Below, one piece after another: positions 17,850 to 30,600 of a stretch of DNA of 30,600 nucleotides. The position numbers and the translations under genes are program-made. Every line of letters begins with the position of its first letter. Position 1 is the stretch's first letter. Source of the stretch: Armatimonadota bacterium (GTDB lineage Bacteria > Armatimonadota > Zipacnadia > Zipacnadales > UBA5352); the NCBI GenBank assembly GCA_034722055.1, contig JAYENL010000095.1, forward strand, positions 1 to 30,600, in the 5' to 3' direction. A model generated the notes under the pieces. That model saw only the letters and a list, made by a program, of their open reading frames with translations. It was not told where the DNA came from and ran no database searches.

Positions 17850-20800
17850 ATGCTCCGCGTGCTGCTGGTGGGAGTGCTGCTGACCGCGACCGTCGCGGGC
17901 GCCCAGGACTACCAGGCCGTGCCCTACGGCGACCTGGAGTATCTCGGAGGGGCTTCTGACGGCACCGCGGCCTGGCCTGTATGGGCGCGAGCCGGCGGGC
18001 CCTGCAGCGCGCGTGGCTGGACGGTGATCCGCGGGAATCCCGCCGGCGGAGAGGTCTGCGTGCGCGGAACCGTCGCCGGCGAGAAGTTCACCATCGCCGG
18101 CGAGGGATATGGCAGCCCCATCACCGGCTCGGTGGCACTCCGCTCGGACATCGACGGGGCGCAGGCCACCATCCGTCTGAGCTGGTTCAACCGCCTCAGC
18201 CGTGTCGATGAAAAGCGCACCGTCGATCTCTCCCCCGAATGGCAGCGCTTCGAGCTGAGCACCAGCCCGGACAGCGGCGGACCGTTTGAGCTGGCAGTGG
18301 CCCCGGCGGGTGAGGCGGCGGTCTACGCTGACGAGTTCTCCATCCGCTGCGCCGGCCCGCCGCTGAACGAGAGGGTCGAGGATGCCACGCCGGTCGCGCA
18401 TCCAGCGCTGGACCTCGACGCGCTCCAGCAGTACGAGGGCGGGGCCGCCGGGCGGGCGGGCTCGGTGCCGCTGATGCTGCGCGTGCCTGAGGGCGATGGC
18501 GACCTGACCCCGGTCGCCTCTGGCGGCATTCCGTTCCCGAAGGGCGAGCTCTACGACCGGCGGCACGTGCGGGTGACCACGGCGGACGGCGAGCCGGTGG
18601 AGGCGCAGCTTGACGTCCTCTCGCGCTGGCACGGCGATAGCTCCATCCTGGCGCTGCTGGTGACGGTGCCGACAGACGCCCCGCGAGAGCTGCGGCTGGA
18701 GTACAGTCCGGAGATCACCGGCGAGCAGCAGCCGAGGGGGATGGAGCCGCCCTCCGCGCTGCCGGTCGTTGTCGGTCTCGATGGCAGTGAGTACGGTCCC
18801 GAGGACGCCGAGTGGGCGGCGGTTGAGCGCGGGGGACCGCTGATGGCGGTCACAGCGCGCCGACGTGCTGTCGGTCCGTTGCAGGTGGAGGTGCGGACGA
18901 CGGTGTTCCGCGGCTCGTCGAAGGCACTCGTGAGCGCCACCTTCATCAACGAGGGCGAGCGCGTGGCGCTGAAGGGCCTCGGCCTGCGACTGAAGCGGAC
19001 GGGTGCCGCCCCGCTGTTGCTCATGAGCGGCGACGGCTACGTGCCGACGCGCGCGGCCGAGGAGGTCGCGTGGGGGATCGGCCCGGCGCGGGCGCAGCCC
19101 GCGGTCTACGGGCTTGCAGCCGGCGCGGAGCCGACCGGATCGGTCGCGGTGCCCTCGGGCGATGCCGGGATCGGCGTATCCGTGCGCGACTTCGCCGAGA
19201 ACCGGCCGAGCGGCTTCACAGTGACTCAGGAGGCGCTGACCGCATGGGCCTGGCCTCCCGAGGCCGGCGGCTTCGTGATGAGCCAGGGGATGGCCCGGAC
19301 CTTCGACGTGCTGATCGACCTCGAGGCCGACGGCCCCCCGCCTCCGTACCGCACCCAGGACCTGCCGCTGCTTACCGCGCCCGCTCAGTGGTACTGCGAC
19401 AGCGGAGTGTTCAACTTCCTCATGCCGCCGGATGCCGAGACCTTCCCTATCTTCGAGAGCACGCTGGGGAGCCTGGAGACGCTGGGGCGCTTCTCGTGGG
19501 AGCGCAAGGAGAGCGGCGACCTCTATGGCTGGTTCAACTTCGGCGACGCGCCCGGCGACGGCGGCTGGTCCAACCTGGAGACCATGGCCGACCACGAGCT
19601 GCTGCTGCACTTCTTCCGCACCCTCTCGCGCGAGCACTTCGACAACGCGCGGCTGGCGGCAGAGCACTACCGCGACGTGGACATTGACCATCGCTTCGGC
19701 TACTGCCACACGCACTGCAACAACCACACGTCCTCCGGGGAGAGCTGGTCGCACTCCTGGATCCAGGGCATCCGCGACCTGTATCTGCTGACCGGCAACA
19801 CGCGCTCGCTGGCGGTGCTGGGCGAGGTGGGCGAGCGGCTGCTGAGCAAGGACCCCGGCTTCACCACCGGCCGCGACTGGACGCGGGCCATCGACAACCT
19901 GGTGGACATCTCCCAGGTCACCGGCGACCGGCGCTACCTGGACGCGGCCATGGATCACATCCGGCTGCTGGGCGAGCGGCAGGAGCCGGAGACGGGGGTG
20001 TGCGGCGCTGAGAAGGGCTCCTGGTACGAGAATCGCTACGCCGCGGGCAGCGCCTTCACCTGGTACGGCTGCCTGGCGATGGCGAAGCTGCATCAGAACG
20101 TGGGCGGCGATGAGCTGCGGGAGATCTTCCTGCGGGAGCTTGACCTCTCGCTGGACGTGGAGACGAAGGGCAAGGCCGCGTGGGTCTACCCCCAGGACGC
20201 GCAGATCAGCGAGGACAAGGGGGCGCAGGTGATCGGTCAGTACACCCTGGGCCGCGGCTCGGTGCTGTTCCCGGCGCTGGGGTACGCCTACCGCATCACC
20301 GGCGACGAGCAGTACCTGCGGCGGGGCATGGACGTGCTGGCCTACTGCCTGCTGAACCAGCGGGGCGGCTCGGACGCTTCGGCGACCTCCTTCATCACCG
20401 CCTTCCTGCGGGAGGCGAAGGCCGCCGGCTACGGCCCGGAGCAGGAGCGGGAAGCTTTCGAGCGCGCGAGGGACTTCTCGTGGTCGCAGCACCCTCGCGA
20501 GCTGACCAATGGCGGCTTTGAGATGCCGCAGTTCGCCCACTGGAGCGTCAAGAAGGTCCCCGGCCGGGACTTCTACGAGGACCCCATCGTCCACGTCGGC
20601 TACTACTGGGATGATGAGGTGACCATCGAGGGGCAGCACTCACTGCGCATCCACTCCGACAACCGCCTGCGGAGAATCACGGTGACTGGCAGGACCGCGC
20701 TCACCGGGCCGAGGCGGTGGCGACTCACCGGCTGGGTGCGCTCCGAGGGCAGCATGAACCCGCAGATCTACTACTCGCTGCGCAGCTTCGAGGACGACTC

Positions 20801-21479
20801 CGGCGGCAGCGGCATGCTGACCGACACCGGGGAGACGCGCGAGGGCTGGGTGCAGCGCTCGGCGGAGTTCATGACCATGGGCCGGCAGGTGCTGACCATC
20901 AGCCTCATCAACCGCCAGGGCACGGGAGACTGCTGGTTCGACGGCCTGGAGCTGGAGGACCTGGGCGAGACCGGCAAGCTCCTGACCGAGAACGGCGTCG
21001 GCCACGAGGGCCGGGAGCCGAGCGAGGCCATCGTCATCCGAACCGGCGGCAGCTACCTCCCCGACGCGCCCATGACCGGCGACGTGGAGATGGAGGGGCC
21101 CATTCCTTTCACCGAGGGCGCGCTTACCGATGGCGATGACAGCTACGACTACCACCGGACGCCGTGCAGCTACGCATACTGGGAGGATCGCGAGAGGGGC
21201 GAGGTCCTGTTCGACCTCCAGGACACCTACCGCATCGACCGCGTGAGCCTGAAGGTGAACAGCGACCCCTCGCGGCGGGCCCACGGGACGGCCAGGATCG
21301 AGCTGCTGCCGGCCGAGGGAGAGGAGCCGATCGCCGTCATGGAGCCGGTCGATGGCTGGAACAGCTTCGAGGACCTGGGCGTCCGGGCGCAGAAGCTGCG
21401 CCTGCGGCTGCACCTGATGGAGGGCCGGGCATATCTGACCATCGCCGAGGTGCAGATCTGGGGCGACGAGATCGACTGA
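17850..21479 (+). CDS. Large secreted modular protein with a PcRGLX/YetA-like (exo-rhamnogalacturonan lyase-like) core and CBM-like/discoidin-like domains
   Basis: Signal peptide (…AGA-QD); GGIPFPKGEL…V.AQLDVLSRW.GD.S (N-terminal barrel-like); LYGWFNFGD, EHYRDVD, SHSWIQG…YLLTG (alpha-toroid); LTNGGFE (CBM4/9-like); GALTDG…FDL…I.RV…IAEVQIWG (F5/8-like). Start ATG 17850 after GAGGA. Confidence 0.65.
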   Translation: MLRVLLVGVLLTATVAGAQDYQAVPYGDLEYLGGASDGTAAWPVWARAGGPCSARGWTVIRGNPAGGEVCVRGTVAGEKFTIAGEGYGSPITGSVALRSDIDGAQATIRLSWFNRLSRVDEKRTVDLSPEWQRFELSTSPDSGGPFELAVAPAGEAAVYADEFSIRCAGPPLNERVEDATPVAHPALDLDALQQYEGGAAGRAGSVPLMLRVPEGDGDLTPVASGGIPFPKGELYDRRHVRVTTADGEPVEAQLDVLSRWHGDSSILALLVTVPTDAPRELRLEYSPEITGEQQPRGMEPPSALPVVVGLDGSEYGPEDAEWAAVERGGPLMAVTARRRAVGPLQVEVRTTVFRGSSKALVSATFINEGERVALKGLGLRLKRTGAAPLLLMSGDGYVPTRAAEEVAWGIGPARAQPAVYGLAAGAEPTGSVAVPSGDAGIGVSVRDFAENRPSGFTVTQEALTAWAWPPEAGGFVMSQGMARTFDVLIDLEADGPPPPYRTQDLPLLTAPAQWYCDSGVFNFLMPPDAETFPIFESTLGSLETLGRFSWERKESGDLYGWFNFGDAPGDGGWSNLETMADHELLLHFFRTLSREHFDNARLAAEHYRDVDIDHRFGYCHTHCNNHTSSGESWSHSWIQGIRDLYLLTGNTRSLAVLGEVGERLLSKDPGFTTGRDWTRAIDNLVDISQVTGDRRYLDAAMDHIRLLGERQEPETGVCGAEKGSWYENRYAAGSAFTWYGCLAMAKLHQNVGGDELREIFLRELDLSLDVETKGKAAWVYPQDAQISEDKGAQVIGQYTLGRGSVLFPALGYAYRITGDEQYLRRGMDVLAYCLLNQRGGSDASATSFITAFLREAKAAGYGPEQEREAFERARDFSWSQHPRELTNGGFEMPQFAHWSVKKVPGRDFYEDPIVHVGYYWDDEVTIEGQHSLRIHSDNRLRRITVTGRTALTGPRRWRLTGWVRSEGSMNPQIYYSLRSFEDDSGGSGMLTDTGETREGWVQRSAEFMTMGRQVLTISLINRQGTGDCWFDGLELEDLGETGKLLTENGVGHEGREPSEAIVIRTGGSYLPDAPMTGDVEMEGPIPFTEGALTDGDDSYDYHRTPCSYAYWEDRERGEVLFDLQDTYRIDRVSLKVNSDPSRRAHGTARIELLPAEGEEPIAVMEPVDGWNSFEDLGVRAQKLRLRLHLMEGRAYLTIAEVQIWGDEID

Positions 21480-21503
21480 CGAAGCGCAAGGAGATATGAG
21501 CTG

Positions 21504-23435
21504 ATGGCGGAGCGACCGCTGCGACGCAGGGACGCGTTCTTCGGGCTGCACTTCGACCTGCACGCGAACGAGAGCGACGAGGCGCTCGGCGCGGAGACCA
21601 CGGAGCAGAACATCCGCGAGCTGATGCAGCGCGTGCGTCCCGACTGGGTGCAGTGGGACTGCAAGGGCCACCCGGGATATGCCAGCTACCCCACGGAGGT
21701 GGGCTGGTCGGCCCCGGGCATCGAGGGGGATGCGCTGGCGGTGCTGCGGGAGGTCACGCGCGAGATGGGCGTGGCGCTGCTGGTGCACTACTCGGGGGTG
21801 ATGGACCAGAAGGCCATCGAGGAGCACCCGGAGTGGGCCGCGCGGACCGCCGACCGCGAGCCCGACGAGCGCGCCACCAGCACCTTCGGCGACTATGTCG
21901 ATGAGCTGATGATCCCCCAGCTCCGGGAGGTCGTGGAGAAGTACGACATCGACGGCCTGTGGGTGGACGGTGACTGCTGGGCAGCGGTGCTGGACTACTG
22001 CCCGCGCGCCGTGGAGCAATGGCGTGAGGAGACCGGCCTGGAGCCGCCGGCCGGTCCCGATGACGAGGGCTGGCATCAGTGGAAGGACTTCCACCGCGAG
22101 CAGTTCCTGCGCTACCTGCGGCACTGGGTGGATGCGCTGCACGAGGTCAAGCCTGACCTGGACATCACCAGCAACTGGATGTACTCCACCTATGCTCCCG
22201 TGGAGCCGGAGGTGGATCTGGACTACCTCTCCGGCGACTTCTCGCCGACCGGCTCGTGCGACCGGGCGCGGCTGGAGGCGCGCTACTTCGCCAGCACCGG
22301 CAAGCCCTGGGACCTGATGGCATGGGGCTTCAACCGCCACTCGGCCGGGCGGCTGCACAAGCCGCCGGTGCAACTGATGCAGGAGGCCGGCGTGGTCCTC
22401 AGTCAGGGCGGGGCCTTCCAGTACTACTACCAGCCCACCCGCGCAGGTCGCGTGCCCAGCCAGTTCATCGACACCGCCGCGGAGGTCGCCGGGTTCTGCC
22501 GGGCGCGCCAGCTTATCACCCAGGGCAGCACCTCCGTCCCGCAGGTGGCGCTGCTGCTGCCCACCGACGACATGATGCGGCGCTCCGACCGCGTGTTCCA
22601 GACCGGCGGCGTCCGCGAGCACGTGGAGGGCGCCCTGCACGCGCTGCTGGAGCTGCACTACTCCGTGGACGTGCTGGCGGAGTGGGGCTTGATGGCACGG
22701 CTGGAGGAGTTCCCGCTGGTGGTGGTTCCTGATGCGCAGACGCTGGCGGCTCAGGTCCGCGACGCCTTGGTGCAGTACGTGCGCTCCGGCGGGAGCCTGC
22801 TGCTCATCGGCCCCCACGTGGCCGGCATGTTCGCCACGGAGCTGAGCGTGCGGCTCGATGGCGCGCCGAAGGAGGAGACCGCGTACCTGACCTCGCCGAT
22901 GGGGATGGGCGCCTCGCAGGGGCTGTGGCAGGCGGTGACGCACGTGGAGGCCGACGGGGTGGCGCTGCGCTTCCCGACCTTCGAGCCGCGGCACGGCGTG
23001 CCGGCCGCCACGGTAGCGGAGCTTGGCGACGGGATGATCGGCGCTGCATGGGGTCAGGTGGGCGCGGAGTACCGGCGCTCGCATCATCCGGCGCTGCGGC
23101 ACCTCATCGGCGAGCTGGCCGAGCGGCTGTTCCCGACGCCCGACGTGTCCATCGTCGGGCCGCCGAGCGTGGAGATGGCGCTGCGGCGCACGGCCGACGG
23201 CCGGCTCGCGCTGCACATGCTCAACCTCAGCAACGCGCAGCGCGCCGACAGCCACCTGGCGGTGGAGCACGTGCCGGAGGTGGGGCCCATCGGCGTGGAG
23301 CTGGCCGTCGAGGACGAGCCATCGGCTGTCACGTGGGAGCCCGACGGCGAGGCGCTGCAGTGGTCATGGGCCGATGGAGTGCTGAGCGCCGCGGTGCCGG
23401 GCGTGCACATCCACGGCGCGGTCGTGGTGTCATAG
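21504..23435 (+). CDS. Putative glycoside hydrolase (GH29/GHL6-like TIM barrel plus beta-galactosidase trimerisation-like domain)
   Basis: FGLHFDLH, WDCKGHPGYASYPT, YDIDGLWVDG, and C-terminal L.EFPLVVVPD…L.QYV.SGG.LL. No signal peptide. AAGGAG RBS. Confidence 0.7.
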   Translation: MAERPLRRRDAFFGLHFDLHANESDEALGAETTEQNIRELMQRVRPDWVQWDCKGHPGYASYPTEVGWSAPGIEGDALAVLREVTREMGVALLVHYSGVMDQKAIEEHPEWAARTADREPDERATSTFGDYVDELMIPQLREVVEKYDIDGLWVDGDCWAAVLDYCPRAVEQWREETGLEPPAGPDDEGWHQWKDFHREQFLRYLRHWVDALHEVKPDLDITSNWMYSTYAPVEPEVDLDYLSGDFSPTGSCDRARLEARYFASTGKPWDLMAWGFNRHSAGRLHKPPVQLMQEAGVVLSQGGAFQYYYQPTRAGRVPSQFIDTAAEVAGFCRARQLITQGSTSVPQVALLLPTDDMMRRSDRVFQTGGVREHVEGALHALLELHYSVDVLAEWGLMARLEEFPLVVVPDAQTLAAQVRDALVQYVRSGGSLLLIGPHVAGMFATELSVRLDGAPKEETAYLTSPMGMGASQGLWQAVTHVEADGVALRFPTFEPRHGVPAATVAELGDGMIGAAWGQVGAEYRRSHHPALRHLIGELAERLFPTPDVSIVGPPSVEMALRRTADGRLALHMLNLSNAQRADSHLAVEHVPEVGPIGVELAVEDEPSAVTWEPDGEALQWSWADGVLSAAVPGVHIHGAVVVS

Positions 23436-23465
23436 ACCCGCGAGACGACTGACGGAGGTGCTGCC

Positions 23466-24413
23466 ATGCACGAGCTGGGAGCGTCGGCGTGCTGTGTGTT
23501 GTGCCTGCTGCTTGCGACGCAGGCGGGCGGGCAGGGGGAGCTGCCGGAGGGCACGTGGGAGCTCGTGACCGAGCACGCGCAGTTTGGCCCCCGCGACACC
23601 GCCGAGCCGCTGGTCTACGACGGGAGGATGTGGCTCAGCAACGGCTACTACCACGGGAACGCGCTCTACCCCGACCTGTGGGTCTCCGAGGATGGCAGGG
23701 ACTGGCGCTGCGTGCTGGAGCACACCCCCTATGATCCCTACTCGGAGATGGTGGTCTACGACGGGAAGATGTGGGCGATCAAGGGCAGCGTCTGGACCTC
23801 CACCGATGGCGAGAGCTGGCAGCAGGTGCTGGAGGAGACGCCCTTCGGCGTGCGCGGCTACGGGGAGGTGCTGGTGCACGAGGGCAAGATCTGGCAGCTC
23901 GGCGGCTCGGACATCTGGACCACCACCGACGGCGTCAACTGGACGCGCGTGGCCCAGGATCTCCCCTACGGCGGGCGCTCGGGCTCCACGATCCTGTCCT
24001 TCGACGGCAAGCTGTGGCTGATCGCGGGCAGAGTGCCGGTGCGCAGCGACCCGCCCGAGAGCGGCTACGAGAACATCACAACCCACAACGACGTGTGGCG
24101 CTCAGCGGACGGGGTGACGTGGGAGCGGGTGCTGGAGCACGCGCCGTGGACGCCGCGGATGTGGGTGTGCGGCGAGGTCTACCGCGACCATATGTTCATC
24201 ATCGGCGGGTATGACAACCGCAACGAGGCGAACTTCGGCGACATCTGGTACAGCGCGGACGGCGTGACCTGGCACGAGCTGCCCACGCCCGAGGGCTACA
24301 AGGGCCGCCACGAGGTCTCGCCCTACGTGTTCCAGGACAGCCTGTGGGTCGTCGCCGGGAACACCTGGCCGGTGGTCAATGACGTCTGGCGACTGACCAT
24401 CCCCGAGGAGTGA
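23466..24413 (+). CDS. Secreted Kelch/BNR-like beta-propeller protein
   Basis: Signal peptide and repeated units of V(Y/F)DGK(M/L)W…GG…D(V/I)W.S.DG..W. GGAGG RBS. Confidence 0.8.
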   Translation: MHELGASACCVLCLLLATQAGGQGELPEGTWELVTEHAQFGPRDTAEPLVYDGRMWLSNGYYHGNALYPDLWVSEDGRDWRCVLEHTPYDPYSEMVVYDGKMWAIKGSVWTSTDGESWQQVLEETPFGVRGYGEVLVHEGKIWQLGGSDIWTTTDGVNWTRVAQDLPYGGRSGSTILSFDGKLWLIAGRVPVRSDPPESGYENITTHNDVWRSADGVTWERVLEHAPWTPRMWVCGEVYRDHMFIIGGYDNRNEANFGDIWYSADGVTWHELPTPEGYKGRHEVSPYVFQDSLWVVAGNTWPVVNDVWRLTIPEE

Positions 24414-26611
24414 TGCCGGTGGCTCGCGGACTGTGCGCCCTGGCGCTGGCTGTGATGCTGATTGCGGCCCAGGCCGCGGCACAGCAGGTGACCTCGTTCG
24501 AGAGCGATGACTGGACGGAGCGGTTCCAGCCGGGCAACGTGACTGCCGAGCGGGTGCGCGAGCACGCCACGGACGGCGAATGGGCGCTGCGGGTGCTGTT
24601 CCCGGGCGCGGAGGAGGACACCTGGCCGGGGATCAGCTTCTTCCCGCAGGTGGACACCACCGACAAGCAGGTCCTGATGTTCGACGTCTTCAACCCCGCG
24701 GAGGAGCCGGTGCATCTCTCCTGGCGGCTGGACCTGGCCGACGAGAGCACGCAGTTCGGGGGCACCAGCGTGGAGCCGGGGGCATCGACCGTCGAGCTGT
24801 GGGTCTCGGGCCTCGGCCCCCTCACGCGCATCTACCCCTACTTCCGCATGCCCCGCGCCGATCACGTCCTGTTCTTCGACAACGTCCGCTGGGCCACGGT
24901 CGAGGACCGATTCCGGCCGCTGGTCTATGTGGATGACGCCGAGCCGCCGACGCCCACCGACCTGGAGGGGGAGCGCGGCTTCATCCTCTTCCGCCGGCCG
25001 CTGACGGACGTGGTCTTCGCGAACAGCCCGCCGCGGCCACGCGAGCGCATCGAGACGGTTGACGTCTTCGCCACGCCCGACGAGTACGAGCCGGCGACGC
25101 TGGCGATCTTCGCGCTGGAGGACCTGACCGGGCTGGAGGTGCGCTTCGAGGGCGTGCCCGCCGCGGGCGAGGTGCTGCCTGTCCGCTGCCTCAACAAGCG
25201 CGTGACGTATCACTCCGACGAGTACATCCGCGACATGCCGGTCCTGTGCGAGCGGCGCAAGGCGGTGGACGTCGCGGCCGGCGAGTCCAGGCGCTTCGTG
25301 ATCGACCTGCACATCGACGAGAACGCCCCGCCGGGCATCCACCGGGGGACGGTGATTATCTCCCGCGATGGCGCCGAGCCGGTGCGGGTGCCCATGCGCG
25401 TGCGCGTGCTGCCCTACCGGCTCGCGGAGCCGGCGGACATGTTCTGGGGCGAGTACTACACCGGGCCGAAGCTGGTGGAGGGCGAGGAGCAGGCGCTGGC
25501 GCAGATGCGCCGGGACCTTGCCGACCAGCGCGCGCACGGCATGAGCTCGGTGGGGCTCACCTTCGGCCTTTCCACCGACAGCGTGACGTGGCGCGAGGAC
25601 GGAAGCTGCGAGATCGAGCCCGAGGGAACGCGCTACGCGGCCTTCATGGACATGTACGTGGAGCTGGGCTTCCCGATGCCGGTGATCCTGCTTGGCGACA
25701 GCGGCCAGGCCGCGGCCGGGAAGGCCGGTGACTTCGCCGTGGACAGCGAGGAGTGGGCCCGGCACTACCAGGCCTTCTGGCGCGCCATGCAGGCCGAGCA
25801 TCGGCGGCGCGGGTGGCCCGAGGTCATCGTCCAGCCCGTCGATGAGCCCGGCTGGCAGAGCCGCGAGAAGCAGCTCCGCAACGTGCGCTGCCTGAGGCTG
25901 CTCAAGGAGATTCCGGGCATGCGCACCGAGCAGGACGGCCCGGGCGATGAGTACTTCCACACCGAGGCCGGGCCGTGGGCGGACGTGTGGAACTACAACG
26001 GCGGGATCGCGGAGCGGGAGGTCGTGCAGGAGGCGCGGGACGCGAGCAAGATCGTGACGATCTACAATTGTGACGTGGAGAGCTACCGGCCGGAGGTGGA
26101 TCGCTACGTGGCCGGCTGGTTCCAGACCGCCGCCGGCATCAGCGGCTGCTACAACTGGGCCTACATGTCCTGGCGCGGCAGTCCCTACGACGACCTCGAC
26201 CACGGCACCGGCACATGGATGCACGTCTATCCGCCGATGGGCGAGGAGCAGGGCGGACCGTCCACGGGCTGGATCGGCGCGCGCGAGGGCGTGGATGACT
26301 ATCGCTACGTGCACACGCTGCGCCAGGCCATCCGGCGCGCTGAGGCCGCCGGCGGCGAGGCCCGCGCCGCCGCCCGCGAGGCCCGGAGGGAGCTGGATGG
26401 CATCGTCGCGAGCATCGACTACGATCCCCGGGTCCGCGGGACCGCGCGCTGGACAGGGGCCGGCGCCCTGCGGGACGGCACGAAGACCATCGGGGGGACG
26501 CTGAAGCTGCCTAATGGCTGGCGGCACGCCGACTACCTGGTCAATCGCTGGCTGGTGGCGCAGGCCACGATGCGCGTGCTGGAGGCGCTGGGCGAGATCC
26601 CGGAGCAGTAG
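24413..26611 (+). CDS. Secreted putative glycoside hydrolase (GH123/DUF4091-like)
   Basis: Signal peptide (AAA-QQ), DEYEPA, PVDEP motif, GCYNWAY, VYP…GPS..W…REGVDDYRY. Coupled to the upstream gene through TGATG. Confidence 0.65.
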   Translation: MPVARGLCALALAVMLIAAQAAAQQVTSFESDDWTERFQPGNVTAERVREHATDGEWALRVLFPGAEEDTWPGISFFPQVDTTDKQVLMFDVFNPAEEPVHLSWRLDLADESTQFGGTSVEPGASTVELWVSGLGPLTRIYPYFRMPRADHVLFFDNVRWATVEDRFRPLVYVDDAEPPTPTDLEGERGFILFRRPLTDVVFANSPPRPRERIETVDVFATPDEYEPATLAIFALEDLTGLEVRFEGVPAAGEVLPVRCLNKRVTYHSDEYIRDMPVLCERRKAVDVAAGESRRFVIDLHIDENAPPGIHRGTVIISRDGAEPVRVPMRVRVLPYRLAEPADMFWGEYYTGPKLVEGEEQALAQMRRDLADQRAHGMSSVGLTFGLSTDSVTWREDGSCEIEPEGTRYAAFMDMYVELGFPMPVILLGDSGQAAAGKAGDFAVDSEEWARHYQAFWRAMQAEHRRRGWPEVIVQPVDEPGWQSREKQLRNVRCLRLLKEIPGMRTEQDGPGDEYFHTEAGPWADVWNYNGGIAEREVVQEARDASKIVTIYNCDVESYRPEVDRYVAGWFQTAAGISGCYNWAYMSWRGSPYDDLDHGTGTWMHVYPPMGEEQGGPSTGWIGAREGVDDYRYVHTLRQAIRRAEAAGGEARAAAREARRELDGIVASIDYDPRVRGTARWTGAGALRDGTKTIGGTLKLPNGWRHADYLVNRWLVAQATMRVLEALGEIPEQ

Positions 26612-26620
26612 ACACAGGTG

Positions 26621-26757
26621 CCGCTGACGACAGCGCGACCCATGCCGCGCATGGCTCGCGCCTGGGTCGACTTTCGGTGTCGGCGTGGAGGGGCCGCCGG
26701 AGGGCGACCGCCCTCGGCCCTGCGGCGGCCGAGACGATGCACGCCGACCGGCAGCGG
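26621..26757. repeat. Nested palindromic intergenic element between convergent operons, sharing a 23-mer with the element at 12-34
   Basis: Stems CCGCTG/CAGCGG, CGACCCA/TGGGTCG, GTCGGCGTG/CACGCCGAC, GGCCGCCG/CGGCGGCC; CGTGGAGGGGCCGCCGGAGGGCG at 26684-26706. Confidence 0.55.
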
Positions 26758-26795
26758 CCCGTCCGGCAGGCTACCTCCGGCCGCAGGTCAGGCCC

Positions 26796-27494
26796 TCACG
26801 GTGATGGATCGAAGTACGTATCATTGCCGTTGTCGTAGAGCACCTGGTAACCCATCGCCTTCGCATGGCCATCGACGAAGCCGACGTTCCCCTGCTGGTT
26901 GTGGCGCACGCAGAAGTTGAAGGTGTACTCGTACGGGATGTTGTGATCCCAGGTGTCATGGTCGCTGCCATCCGGGGCGTCGCCGCGCATGCCACTCGAT
27001 GGCGGGAAGATCTGCCAGGTCAGCCACGCGATGTTCGGCGTGATGTCCGCGACCGTCACACACGAGGCGGGCTGCTTCACCTGTGCCAGTGAGGGCGGGG
27101 TGGAGCCATGGAGGCAGAGGTACGCGTTCATGCCGTAGCTGCGCGAGCCCTTGTAGTAGATCCCGTATAGATCGTGCTTGACTGATGCGGGCCCCTGACT
27201 GGGGCAGTCATAGACCTGCACATTCTTCACATAGGGGTAGACCGCTCCCGACCAGGTATAGCGGTCGTAGAAGTTCGTCCGGTTCACAAATCCCAGGGGG
27301 AAGTGCTCGTCATAGTCCTGGACGTACATCAGCACTCCCATATTGATCTGCTTGACGTTGGAGAGACAGCTCGATTGCCGTGCCTTCTCGCGCGCCCTTG
27401 CGAAGACGGGAAACAGGATCGCTGCCAGGATCGCGATGATCGCGATCACGACCAGCAGTTCGATGAGGGTGAAGCCACGCCTGTGGGTGAACAT
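26796..27494 (-). CDS. DUF1559-family prepilin-type N-terminal cleavage/methylation protein with H-X9-DG motif (copy A)
   Basis: [44 protein letters not shown]…[27 protein letters not shown]. Start at 27494 after GGAGGG. Confidence 0.92.
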
Positions 27495-27622
27495 AATCGT
27501 CCCTCCTGCTTGTTTGGCGCAGGGGGGGGACGTGATACAATCGCTGCGGCGGCGTGGCGATTGCCACGTCCCCCCGGGCTCGCAGCGCGTTGCCGCGCGC
27601 TGCGGGCCTTTGTATTGCGCCG
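27495..27622 (-). promoter_or_regulatory. Conserved structured 5' leader, copy A
   Basis: Near-identical to 29630-29754 and 30560-30600; two long hairpins plus an alternative anti-SD helix. Confidence 0.7.
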
Positions 27623-28078
27623 CGTTCTGACCTGAGGTGCTCTCAGACCGAAGGCATCTCAGGAGAGCAGTACTGCCCTTCATATTGTTGCCTGGCGCAG
27701 CAGTTCCTTCGCGAGGTGCACGTTAAATTGCTGCGGCAATCTGCAACATTTGGGAGCGGCAGTGCCCGTGCGGGCTCACATAGAGCAGGCGCGGAGGCGC
27801 AGGGTCTCGTCGGCGAGGGTAGGCTGCCGCCGGCCTGCCCCTGTGGTCGGCCTACCAGTGGGCTATGTCCTGCCTGTGACCCGCGACCGCGCTGGACACG
27901 CGGCACTCAGGAGGCGATGGGGAGGGGCCGGCTGTGGCCCGTTGGCTTTCTTGATGCGGCTGCTGTGCGTGCGCCCTGCGCGTACGGCGCATGGTCGTGA
28001 CCGGCGCTGAAAGGACATCCACGAGGCCGGCGCTCTCGCGTTCCTGTTCCGCGCCGCGGCGCAGGCCTGCCCTCAGGC

Positions 28079-28780
28079 TCAGTATTTCGCGATGATGCTC
28101 TCGGCCTTCTCCCACTTCGCGTGCCCGTCGAAGAATGCGATGTTGCTTCCACCGTTGTGCGCGGTCGCGTCCACGTTGGGGTTGTCCTCCAGGTAGGTCT
28201 CCCAGTTGCAGTTATTGGGATAGCCCATCCGCGGGAATGCGAAGCAGCGAGACGGTCCGAGGAAGTTCGGGTAGACGCTATCGGCCCACGCGGGCGTCTC
28301 CGCGGGCGCGAGCATCTCCGCGATCGGATAGCCGCCGACCTCGCGATGGCTGGGGCCGTATCCGAGCGTGAGGCCGTCGAACTCATCCGGGTACGCCGCC
28401 GACGCCCACATCGGGTGCCCATCCTTGTGCCAGGGCTTGCGCCCCGTGCGGGACGGGCAGACCCAGACCTGCTTGTTCTTGATATATGGATCGAGCAGAG
28501 CCTGCGGTGCCAGCGCCGCGAGCCAGGGCTCCCAGCCATAGTGGTCGGCGCGAACGACAGTCCCGTCGGGCAGGTGGGTTGACGGCATCCACACCTGATC
28601 GTAGTCCGAGATGTACATCATCGACGCCATGCCGATCTGCTTGAGGTTAGAGAGGCAGCTCGCCTGCCGTGCCTTCTCGCGCGCCCGTGCGAATACCGGG
28701 AAGAGGATCGCTGCCAGGATCGCGATAATCGCGATCACGACCAGCAGCTCAATGAGTGTGAAGCCTCTGCGCGTGCACAT
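28079..28780 (-). CDS. DUF1559-family prepilin-type protein with H-X9-DG motif (copy C)
   Basis: [12 protein letters not shown]…CLSNLKQ…[31 protein letters not shown]; start at 28780. Lacks the shared leader. Confidence 0.92.
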
Positions 28781-28897
28781 ACTATCTCCTCCTTCGACCT
28801 GACGATCTGGTACCGTTGCCACGCACTGACGGAAGAGCTGTGGCCTGACGGCACTTGAGCCGCGTCATCATGGGCTGGGCAGACCTGCCGGCTTCCT

Positions 28898-29629
28898 TCA
28901 CATCCACGGCTCGGCATCGTGCAGCGTGTTCCACCATGTCGTTATGGTCAGGCTCTTGACATGGCCGTCGAGGAACGCTGCGTTCATCGGTGCGTTCGCG
29001 CCCTCTCCGTGTGGCGACCTGAAGACGGTGCACTGTGGGAACACCCGATAGAGGTTTGCGCCCACGCCCTCCCCACCCCAGGTGATCGCATCCTGCCAGA
29101 TGGGGAAGTTGGTCGGCGACACGTTCAGGTCCGCTTCCGTGGCACCGTCGATCGGCTTCCAGTTACTCGAGACGTGGTTGGTGATCACGAGGCTACACAG
29201 GTAGGAGGTCTGGTCGCCGTTCTGGGGGTCAACCGGGCGCATGGCGGGGCAGCGCCAGAGCTCCCAGTTCTTCACATATGGCTGCAGGCGCCAGTGCACG
29301 TAGCCGTTGCGCACGCCCTGGGGTGCGGACGGGGGAGGAGAGCTGTCCTTGTTCTGACTCCAGGCGCTCTTGCAGCAGCCGGCCTCGTTGCTGTGTGCCC
29401 GCGGGCCGATGATGGACCCGTGCGTCGCGATGGGCATGCGCTCGTCGTAGTCCTGCATGTACATTCTCATGGCGAGAGCGATCTGCTTGAGATTCGACGA
29501 GCAGCTCGTCTGCATGGCCTTCTCGCGGGCTCTGGCGAAGACGGGGAACAGGATGGCTGCCAGGATCGCGATGATCGCGATCACGACCAGCAGTTCGATG
29601 AGGGTGAAGCCACGCCTGTCGGTAAACAT
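28898..29629 (-). CDS. DUF1559-family prepilin-type protein (copy B; longer H…DG spacing)
   Basis: [12 protein letters not shown]…CSSNLKQ…[27 protein letters not shown]. Start at 29629. Confidence 0.92.
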
Positions 29630-29754
29630 AATCGTCCCTCCTGCTTGCTGGCGCAGGGGGGGACGTGATACAATCGCTACAGGCGGCGTGGCGATTGCCA
29701 CGTCCCCCGGGCCCGTAGCGCGTTGCCGCGCGCTGCGGGCCTTTCGTTGCACCG
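29630..29754 (-). promoter_or_regulatory. Conserved structured 5' leader, copy B
   Basis: Same element as 27495-27622. Confidence 0.7.
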
Positions 29755-29923
29755 ATTGATCCTTACATCAGTCCGCTGTACGTCCCGCCACATCAATTTA
29801 TTCCCGATTCCTTAAACGACCCGAATGCCGCGGCGGTTCCTGACCGCTGGCGACGCTGAACGTGCAGGGCAGGCGGCGGGCGCCTTCTGAGCTTACACCG
29901 CCGAAGGCACAGGGGTCGCCGGC

Positions 29924-30559
29924 TCAATCGTCGGGATCCGGGGTCCACATGTCCGGATCCAGCGTCTGATCAACCTGGAGCCACTTCGCGTGTCCGTCGA
30001 AGAACCCGTAGTTGGCACCGCCGTTATGCACTTTGTCTACTCCCTCGTTCGTGATCGGATTGCAGTATGTCCCCTCGTGATAGGGAGGGCAGACGCGATG
30101 TCCAGAGTATGACGGCCTCTCGGCGAAGGCGATCGTCTCTGCCGGTGCAGGAAGCTTCGCCAGCTTCAGCACGTCGCCGCTGCCGTGGTAGGACTGAGCG
30201 CTGATGTTGCGCTCGCAGTTCATCGCGTAGCTCAGCCAGCTGTTGTGGGGCGACGAGGGGCAGGTGAAGAGCTGCTGGTTCTTGATGTAGGGGACGATCG
30301 CCTCGTACCACTCGATGCGATCGACCCAGCTACCGTTCAGCTCGACATCGTAGTAGCGGTTGATGTAGACCTCGTCGTAGTCGGAGGCGTACATCGATGC
30401 GCCCAGCATGATCTGCTTGACGTTGCTGAGACAGGCTGTCTGCCGTGCCTTCTCGCGCGCCCTTGCGAATACCGGGAACAGGATGGCTGCCAGGATCGCG
30501 ATGATCGCGATCACGACCAGCAGTTCGATGAGGGTGAAGCCACGCCTGTCGGTAAACAT
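29924..30559 (-). CDS. DUF1559-family prepilin-type protein with H-X9-DG motif (copy D)
   Basis: [12 protein letters not shown]…CLSNVKQ…[27 protein letters not shown]. Confidence 0.92.
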
Positions 30560-30600
30560 AATCGTCCCTCCTGCTTGCTGGCGCAGGGGGGGACGTGATA
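30560..30600 (-). promoter_or_regulatory. Conserved structured 5' leader, copy D (truncated by window end)
   Basis: Identical to 29630-29670. Confidence 0.7.

Follow-up and report, generated by a model that had tools for sequence, protein, structure and literature searches.

Hiding of a ribosome-binding site (RBS) by antisense-induced refolding of an mRNA leader has been described for plasmid replication genes (PMC5703833). According to that account, RNAI of pSK41 (staphylococcal RepA_N plasmids) is a small counter-transcribed RNA of two stem-loops that is complementary to the rep leader 5′ of the RBS; it has been proposed to bring about an RBS-sequestering stem-loop without transcription termination. 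For the repABC counter-transcribed RNA, pT181 RNAI and pIP501 RNAIII, PMC3155836 and PMC5703833 describe a free leader whose large stem-loop leaves the Shine-Dalgarno (SD) sequence open; antisense binding frees an arm, and the alternative helix that results is a transcription terminator. A repressor at the sense promoter is added in pIP501 (PMC5703833). In Synechocystis, the cis-antisense RNA IsrR of isiA lies beneath an iron-dependent repressor, which gives delay and a threshold (PMC8635728). Here we analyse a leader of ∼125 nt in a 30,600-nt stretch of the genome of an Armatimonadota bacterium (GCA_034722055.1, contig JAYENL010000095.1, positions 1 to 30,600 of the forward strand; hereafter the window). 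Four DUF1559 prepilin genes, all on the − strand (26796-30559) and all above the cut-off for both PF07963 (N-methyl motif) and PF07596, form a cluster in which the leader adjoins the ATG of genes A, B and D and gene C has no copy. We propose that this leader is probably an antisense-RNA-controlled translation switch of pilin-like genes, a reading drawn from sequence.

In the mechanism that we propose, a promoter within the leader's own 3′ half, on the opposite strand, would produce a two-hairpin RNA of 65-68 nt. Free mRNA would fold into three helices (P0, P1 and P2) and be translated, while antisense RNA pairing with the 5′ arm of P2 would release an anti-SD arm and bury the RBS (the OFF state); RNase III, which is encoded in the genome, may then cut the mRNA:antisense duplex. 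A two-hairpin antisense RNA, a target upstream of the RBS and an induced RBS-hiding helix that is no terminator are in silico features shared with pSK41 RNAI. Unlike RNAI, the leader is chromosomal, serves DUF1559 prepilins and not RepA_N and occurs in several paralogous copies; no sequence likeness between the two was found. The predicted RNA is ∼66 nt long, has a spacer of 0-3 nt and hardly any 5′ tail, compared with ∼83 nt, an 8-nt spacer and an 18-nt tail for RNAI (PMC5703833), and its predicted promoter is built into the mRNA switch helices. The leader thus appears to work like pSK41 RNAI without being a member of that group. The repABC, pT181 and pIP501 architecture is similar, but the leader's OFF helix is followed by ATT-ATG with no U run and is not a terminator. 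IsrR/isiA involves Fur and linked degradation with no leader refolding described (PMC8635728), whereas refolding is predicted for the leader and the box near some of its copies is DtxR-like. This box, a putative site of a metal-dependent repressor, is found at 6/6 promoter-proximal copies outside the window and 0/3 within it. Translational riboswitches with an anti-SD platform have in common with the leader two exclusive folds, an RBS hidden in one of them and a three-way junction; unlike them, the leader has no Rfam match or conserved loop core and carries a predicted promoter and terminator on the opposite strand.

The mRNA strand of the leader is strongly structured. Copies A and B folded beyond all 200 shuffles on both strands (z scores of −5.0 for A and −6.4 for B in the mRNA sense, and of −5.0 and −5.8 for the complementary strand). 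In alignment A4 of eight full copies, which leaves out A, a partial copy from the related genome G005 and the P1-less copy C319b, 91% of cells were paired in a three-way junction of P0 (6 pairs), P1 (13) and P2 (17). Two-sided changes were present in 8/36 of the P0/P1/P2 pairs, a number reached by 0/500 shuffles and compared with 0-3 in slid controls; in P2, GGAGAC/GUCUCC becomes GGGGAC/GUCCCC. In the alternative fold, which excludes the P0/P1/P2 junction, P1 is joined by a small hairpin (H1) and by an anti-SD:SD helix of 11 pairs; 93.8% of alignment cells were paired in H1 and 97.7% in the anti-SD helix. The SD-to-ATG spacer, GGACG, is invariant among leader copies and diverse in other prepilin genes. 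Indels of 1 and 2 bases among copies argue against a conserved leader peptide, and the leader is real, conserved and non-coding.

These results largely agree with an earlier sequence-only reading of this DNA. Leader copies A, B and D (3′ part) lie on the − strand directly before the ATG of PF07963 + PF07596 genes, and hairpins P1 and P2 were recovered together with the anti-SD pairing (29653-29665 with 29633-29644), all where that reading had placed them; P0, which closes the junction, was absent from it. Its two mutually exclusive folds, one exposing and one hiding the RBS, were both found in a conserved cis-acting leader, and the covariation that it suggested looking for across genomes was observed. 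Its homopolymer covariation (G8/C6 in A versus G7/C5 in B) is true, but weak as evidence, since D has G7/C4. A GNRA loop on P1 was not upheld, because the loop is not conserved (CGGCAA, UUGCAG, CUGCAA, CUGACA). A place outside known Rfam classes was confirmed: none of the 4227 families of Rfam 15 came near its gathering score in 26600-30600, in 27480-27700 or in 8 related loci. By-eye comparison with the ANTAR, NiCo, yybP, Moco and fluoride motifs and with the GNRA loop gave no fit. Free leaders are unbalanced in 8/10 copies, where the full anti-SD helix has a predicted probability (P) of ≤ 0.01; it reaches 0.91 in B and 0.28 in G005b. Because so few free leader molecules are predicted to contain this helix, a trans-acting trigger is needed, for which the sequence offers a candidate (below). 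A riboswitch or protein-binding leader was not borne out as the best reading, although a regulatory cis leader with exclusive folds was.

A promoter scan of 26600-30600 returned a single sigma70-like site, on the + strand within leader A, and P1 is terminator-like on that same strand; no terminator site was found on the mRNA strand of the leader. An antisense-strand extended −10 box (TGn-TAnnnT) is present in 10/11 copies (TGn-TACAAT in nine, TGn-TAGACT in one, none in G016b), and the TTG of the −35 box stands at 17 nt in 7/11 copies, at 18 nt in B and D and, in A, at either 16 or 20 nt. A purine follows 7-8 nt downstream of the −10 box. The window contains two matches to TGnTACAAT, one in A and one in B, where 0.08 would be expected. 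DNA contigs from four plus four sequencing runs confirmed the leader, with TG-TACAAT free of any listed change. A strict form of the promoter pattern had 111 matches over 12.3 Mb, a rate of 0.001 per 120 nt, and in 37 other prepilin upstream regions it occurred on the antisense strand in 0/37 and on the sense strand in 1/37. The strict pattern marks real promoter positions, because 65/111 matches lie upstream of a same-strand open reading frame (ORF) compared with 11% of random places; 12 lie within ORFs (71% of random places). The antisense −35 box corresponds to a CAA that lies unpaired between the anti-SD and SD sequences, and the −10 box takes in an unpaired UA bulge of P2. Since neither is paired, pairing cannot account for these two conserved spots, and an antisense promoter does. 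In the copy on G005:C79, TACAAT has changed to TAGACT with the loss of three P2b pairs and TAnnnT kept.

A pyrimidine/U-rich tail follows P1 on the antisense strand only, in 8/8 aligned copies; 33 hairpins in tRNA 3′ flanks, with a mean of 1.8 T in the tail, were uninformative as a benchmark for terminators. The predicted antisense RNA consists of H1, P1 and the short U-rich tail, a two-hairpin form predicted in 8/10 copies (not C319b or G016b). Wobble-type departures from pairing in P1 and H1 were A.C on the mRNA (G-U on the antisense RNA) rather than the reverse by 11:1, compared with 3:7 in helices that only the mRNA forms (Fisher p 0.006; ten copies, promoter-less G016b left out).

The antisense RNA is predicted to span the A-rich linker and P1 and to extend over the 5′ arm of P2 into the P2 loop. 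It would begin ∼40 nt upstream of the SD (27548 versus 27498-27509 in A), with a target that is wholly 5′ of the RBS. With the target held unpaired in silico, the anti-SD helix reached P 0.85-1.00 in 9/10 copies (G016b, 0.01); all switch figures are equilibrium predictions. Blocking the target changed the cost of opening the region from the SD to AUG+3 by +5.9 (A), +5.4 (B) and +9.4 (D) kcal/mol, and by +5.0, +4.6, +3.7, +5.9 and +7.4 kcal/mol in five other switching copies (8/10 at 3.7-9.4 in total), and the cost was barely up in C319b (+1.8) and G016b (+1.2 kcal/mol). The same block on 37 control genes gave 0.09 ± 1.45 kcal/mol (maximum 3.7). Blocking the target of the RNA's 5′ 26 nt produced most of the effect, and the 8-nt tail alone none. 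The promoter-less copy, G016b, is also the copy that fails to switch in silico. No ProQ/FinO match was found in the genome, which is 93% complete.

Several observations weigh against this reading. Transcription of the antisense RNA and the switching itself are predictions from sequence, and the 11 copies are kin from 5 genomes, so that their tallies lack independence and the covariation control is inflated by kinship. The OFF helix and H1 show zero two-sided changes, and part of the −10 region (TG, ATTG) is equally explained by P2 pairing. The antisense U-tails are short (3-5 U). In the wobble tally, the exclusion of G016b was post hoc, resting on its promoter loss; with this copy included the strand split is 11:4 versus 6:10 (p 0.07), and P2a departures (3 A.C, 1 G-U) do not favour the mRNA strand. 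The G-run has grown in the window copies, and for this reason their −35 box has shifted to 16, 18 or 20 nt. Copy B folds OFF unaided in shorter folding contexts (P 0.91), with an outcome that varies with the length folded. Even when free, the RBS is only average in openness (5.8-12.0 kcal/mol to open; control mean 9.3). C319b retains P0, P2, anti-SD and antisense promoter but has lost P1, the terminator. Finally, A, B, D and the intercistronic C319b have no sense sigma70 promoter and no DtxR box within 420 nt.

Other explanations account for some of these data. An antisense RNA could be produced and exert its effect chiefly through convergent-transcription interference or IsrR-like co-degradation by RNase III, with the anti-SD helix as a secondary safeguard, but this is unlikely. 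The promoter and terminator evidence applies equally to such a mode of action, the genome has RNase III for a predicted duplex of 65-68 bp, and both transcription interference and duplex co-degradation are described for pIP501 and isiA (PMC5703833, PMC8635728); however, neither the P0 and P2 covariation nor the GGACG spacer, which pairs with the anti-SD arm in all copies and is variable elsewhere, would be explained. A metal or metabolite riboswitch, or a protein-binding leader, could drive the same refolding, with the antisense promoter pattern a by-product of P2. The three-way junction, A-rich linker, covarying helices, exclusive anti-SD helix and, outside the window, metal-uptake context would all suit it, yet we regard it as improbable: there is no Rfam match, loops are variable, C319b has lost P1, the opposite strand gives the better fold for P1 and H1, and two unpaired spots, the TA bulge (antisense −10) and CAA (antisense −35), are nevertheless conserved. 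In addition, ligand-free states are unbalanced in 8/10 copies, and an uptake gene would require a ligand that favours OFF, a state without the junction.

Two further readings place the function elsewhere. The switch might be active only at an ancestral DtxR-controlled locus, the window copies being decaying passengers of gene conversion with the hyper-conserved prepilin head. Leaders and heads of A, B and D are indeed near-identical while their C-terminal domains are unrelated, spacer lengths drift and the DtxR box is missing. Still, all three retain P0, the two hairpins and the anti-SD helix as well as the extended −10 box, show a two-sided P2a change relative to other genomes and equal other copies in predicted switching (+5.4 to +9.4 kcal/mol); moreover, the block upstream of A and D is down to ∼71% identity and the leader is not. 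Decay of this kind is improbable, slightly more so than a ligand- or protein-driven leader. A DNA-level hairpin with no RNA role (mobile-element end, recombination site of DUF1559 cassettes or repetitive extragenic palindrome (REP)-like repeat) would be in line with good folding on both strands and with a position next to variable cassettes, on unrelated gene bodies. We consider it very improbable, given the one orientation and fixed ATG distance in 11/11 copies, a copy number of just 5 in 6.1 Mb, neighbouring ORFs among which, as listed, none encodes a transposase or integrase, nothing similar in plasmid, phage and viral collections, and a strand preference that changes from helix to helix. 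A type I toxin-antitoxin system (an antisense RNA against a toxic peptide of <60 aa) was rejected, as the target ORFs encode 211-314 aa.

We examined how widely the proposed switch occurs; G000 denotes the genome of the window, C95 its contig, and other G, L and C labels related genomes, loci and contigs. A prepilin motif search of G000 gave 44 matches, two of which are the same gene D, i.e. 43 genes. The leader precedes only 5/43 of them, namely A, B, D and a pair of genes on contig C319, so its proposed co-ordination of the whole prepilin family fails for the other 38. Blastn among 61 related genomes found six further full or long copies, in G001, G005 (2), G011 and G016 (2), all from the same family. 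A covariance model recovered the identical set (11 copies in 5/18 family genomes) and found nothing convincing over the other 61 genomes of the class. Weak covariance-model matches (G017:C45, G000:C219, G065:C660) were rejected as generic hairpins without an SD/ATG end; four weak blastn matches, in G009, G018, G029 and G043, were rejected for their length of 19-42 bases. Pattern scans gave 10 loci in a genome-contig collection (six of the Armatimonadota group, and four others without the leader on inspection), 2 in metagenomes, both without the leader, none in viral contigs, and short, chance-level matches in plasmids (8) and phages (2); no match in the plasmid collection was better than E 0.09, with 20-35% of the query covered. 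A literature search found no published account of the leader, although one given in supplementary material alone might have escaped it. When sequencing run X1 was compared with window 29600-29790, loose ends hinted at more leader variants in the same habitat; one variant (2 contigs, agreement 0.75) has an altered SD spacer, with which the OFF helix would persist via a G-U pair.

All 11 copies end at an ATG in a single orientation, and 10/11 precede a prepilin gene. The exception (G005:C825, L023:1-1033) precedes a 314-aa protein that retains solely the first ten prepilin codons and matches neither Pfam nor NCBIfam; behind the prepilin head there is another likely start. The leader was found before prepilin-type starts only, which supports the sequence-only reading. 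Copy C319b (L017:3850-3962, G000:C319) begins 3 bases past the stop codon of a DUF4198 gene. Leaders A, B and D are 91-98% alike and the first 99 coding bases match at 94-95/99, and the genes that follow the leader differ in C-terminal domain, with types unrelated to one another: those of A and D are closest to leaderless paralogues (38% and 34%) and that of B gave nothing above 35 bits. Because these domains are unrelated, we infer that leader and prepilin head moved as one module. The leader and the first ten codons (MFxxRRGFTL) would have travelled together onto unrelated DUF1559 bodies to give A, B and D, and the window cluster would be a derived spread of the module without the DtxR-like box.

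Outside the window, promoter-proximal copies are associated with metal uptake. A TTGAC-17/18-TAnnnT promoter lies 220-285 nt upstream in 6/6 of them, overlain in each case by one or two TTAG-N6-CTAA boxes, and the loci contain DUF4198, FmdE, CbiX or ferredoxin genes. The box resembles the core of the DtxR consensus (PMC7762939) and is rare, with 4 matches in G000 by a stricter pattern and 3-6 in four relatives. One in G000 directly follows TTGACA before a DtxR-FeoA gene, then feoB (L036, G000:C324:8257-10221), and a near-identical box occurs once in each of the four relatives; the fourth box of G000, inside a 23S rRNA gene, was dismissed as chance. The DtxR-FeoA regulator scored best in NCBIfam with MntR, below the cut-off. 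The outside-window copies likely sit in metal-uptake loci under a predicted DtxR-like repressor, with a threshold role as for IsrR/isiA. At this ancestral locus, a constant antisense RNA pool would set the threshold, and translation would begin only once the DtxR/FeoA repressor releases under shortage of metal, probably iron. Because A, B and D have no DtxR box, the metal link holds for the copies outside the window only.

The copies might also communicate. Antisense RNA of A or B is predicted to pair with a C319 leader at −111 to −114 kcal/mol, compared with −162 to −169 kcal/mol for cognate pairs, and because of this cross-pairing we considered that a portable antisense module joins unlinked pilin-like paralogues in one network, where subunit display is chosen by RNA titration. 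A burst of DtxR-controlled mRNA under iron shortage would absorb the shared antisense pool, and the window genes, without a DtxR box, would be switched on. We regard this extension as rather unlikely.

Antisense-induced RBS hiding via leader refolding is described for plasmid replication genes (PMC5703833). If our reading is correct, the leader would be a chromosomal version in which promoter, anti-SD arm and mRNA helix are the same 30 bases, a new use of the design in a compact form (125 nt, sigma70-type sites). The module would move between unrelated members of a large pilin-like family under a DtxR-like repressor, and metal uptake would be a first regulatory clue for DUF1559 proteins in an uncultured lineage. 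The reach is narrow, i.e. one family and 5/18 genomes.

Table. Prepilin genes, leader copies and predicted regulatory features in the window.
Feature	Position	Strand	Remarks
DUF1559 prepilin gene A	26796-27494	−	232 aa from ATG 27494; PF07963 + PF07596 over cut-off
DUF1559 prepilin gene C	28079-28780	−	without leader; internal control
DUF1559 prepilin gene B	28898-29629	−	243 aa
DUF1559 prepilin gene D	29924-30559	−	211 aa; H-X9-DG C-terminal motif over cut-off
Leader copy A	27495-27621	−	mRNA order: P0 5′ arm, A-rich linker, P1, P2, P0 3′ arm, SD
A: SD and invariant spacer GCAGGAGGGACG	27498-27509	−	3′ strand of OFF helix
A: candidate −35 region	27510-27519	+	putative; TTGGCG at 16 nt, TTGTTT at 20 nt from −10
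A: anti-SD arm	27519-27532	−	common to P2 3′ arm, P0 3′ arm and OFF helix; also spacer of antisense promoter
A: extended −10 box TGaTACAAT	27533-27541	+	pattern match; putative function
A: predicted antisense RNA, ∼68 nt	27548-27615	+	H1 core 27553-27568, P1 terminator hairpin 27577-27608, U-rich tail; z −4.95; ends predicted
A: P0 5′ arm	27616-27621	−	pairs with 27516-27521
Leader copy B	29630-29753	−	directly 5′ of gene B ATG
B: antisense promoter-like site	29645-29674	+	TTGCTG 29645-29650, 18 nt, TGa-TACAAT, −10 at 29669-29674; putative function
B: predicted antisense RNA, ∼67 nt	29681-29747	+	H1 core 29687-29702, P1 29710-29741, U-rich tail; z −5.25; ends predicted
B-specific upstream stretch	29754-29763	−	can pair with P2b 3′ arm, presetting OFF fold in cis
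Leader copy D, 3′ part	30560-30600	−	SD, anti-SD, antisense −35 TTGCTG 30575-30580, −10 box bases 1-2

Leader D is interrupted by a 100-N scaffold gap, and its complete form is C95:30787-30911. The gap flanks overlap exactly by 127 bases (window 30474-30600 = G000:C95:30701-30827), i.e. the gap is negative; D is therefore a single gene, and an apparent fifth prepilin start on C95 is D again. Upstream of leaders A and D lies a block of 126 bases that is ∼71% alike (27628-27753, − strand, and G000:C95:30916-31042), with AT-rich conserved spots and a hairpin. It has no further copy in the genome and contains neither a sigma70 pattern nor a DtxR box, and is a candidate promoter region for another regulator.

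Further observations concern the surroundings. In the window, + strand genes for large secreted or sugar-active proteins (17850-26611; GHL6/fucosidase-like, Kelch-like repeats, GH123-like) converge on the prepilin cluster. On G000 contigs C176, C203, C250, C275 and C28, and at the end of L004 (G011:C348), prepilin genes break after VVIAII at the same codon, and the foreign sequence beyond is common to them and near contig ends. At L019:8750-9070 (G016:C123), a third, leaderless DUF1559 gene is preceded by a short ORF whose product is rich in His, contains CxxC and ends in RGPP; we take this ORF to resemble a DUF2946-type metal-responsive leader peptide, although it has no NCBIfam match. Finally, an unrelated intergenic hairpin in an Oscillibacter record (L030, 3980-4045) has a 3′ arm complementary to the SD of the following LacI-like gene, i.e. 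the same anti-SD logic in another sequence.

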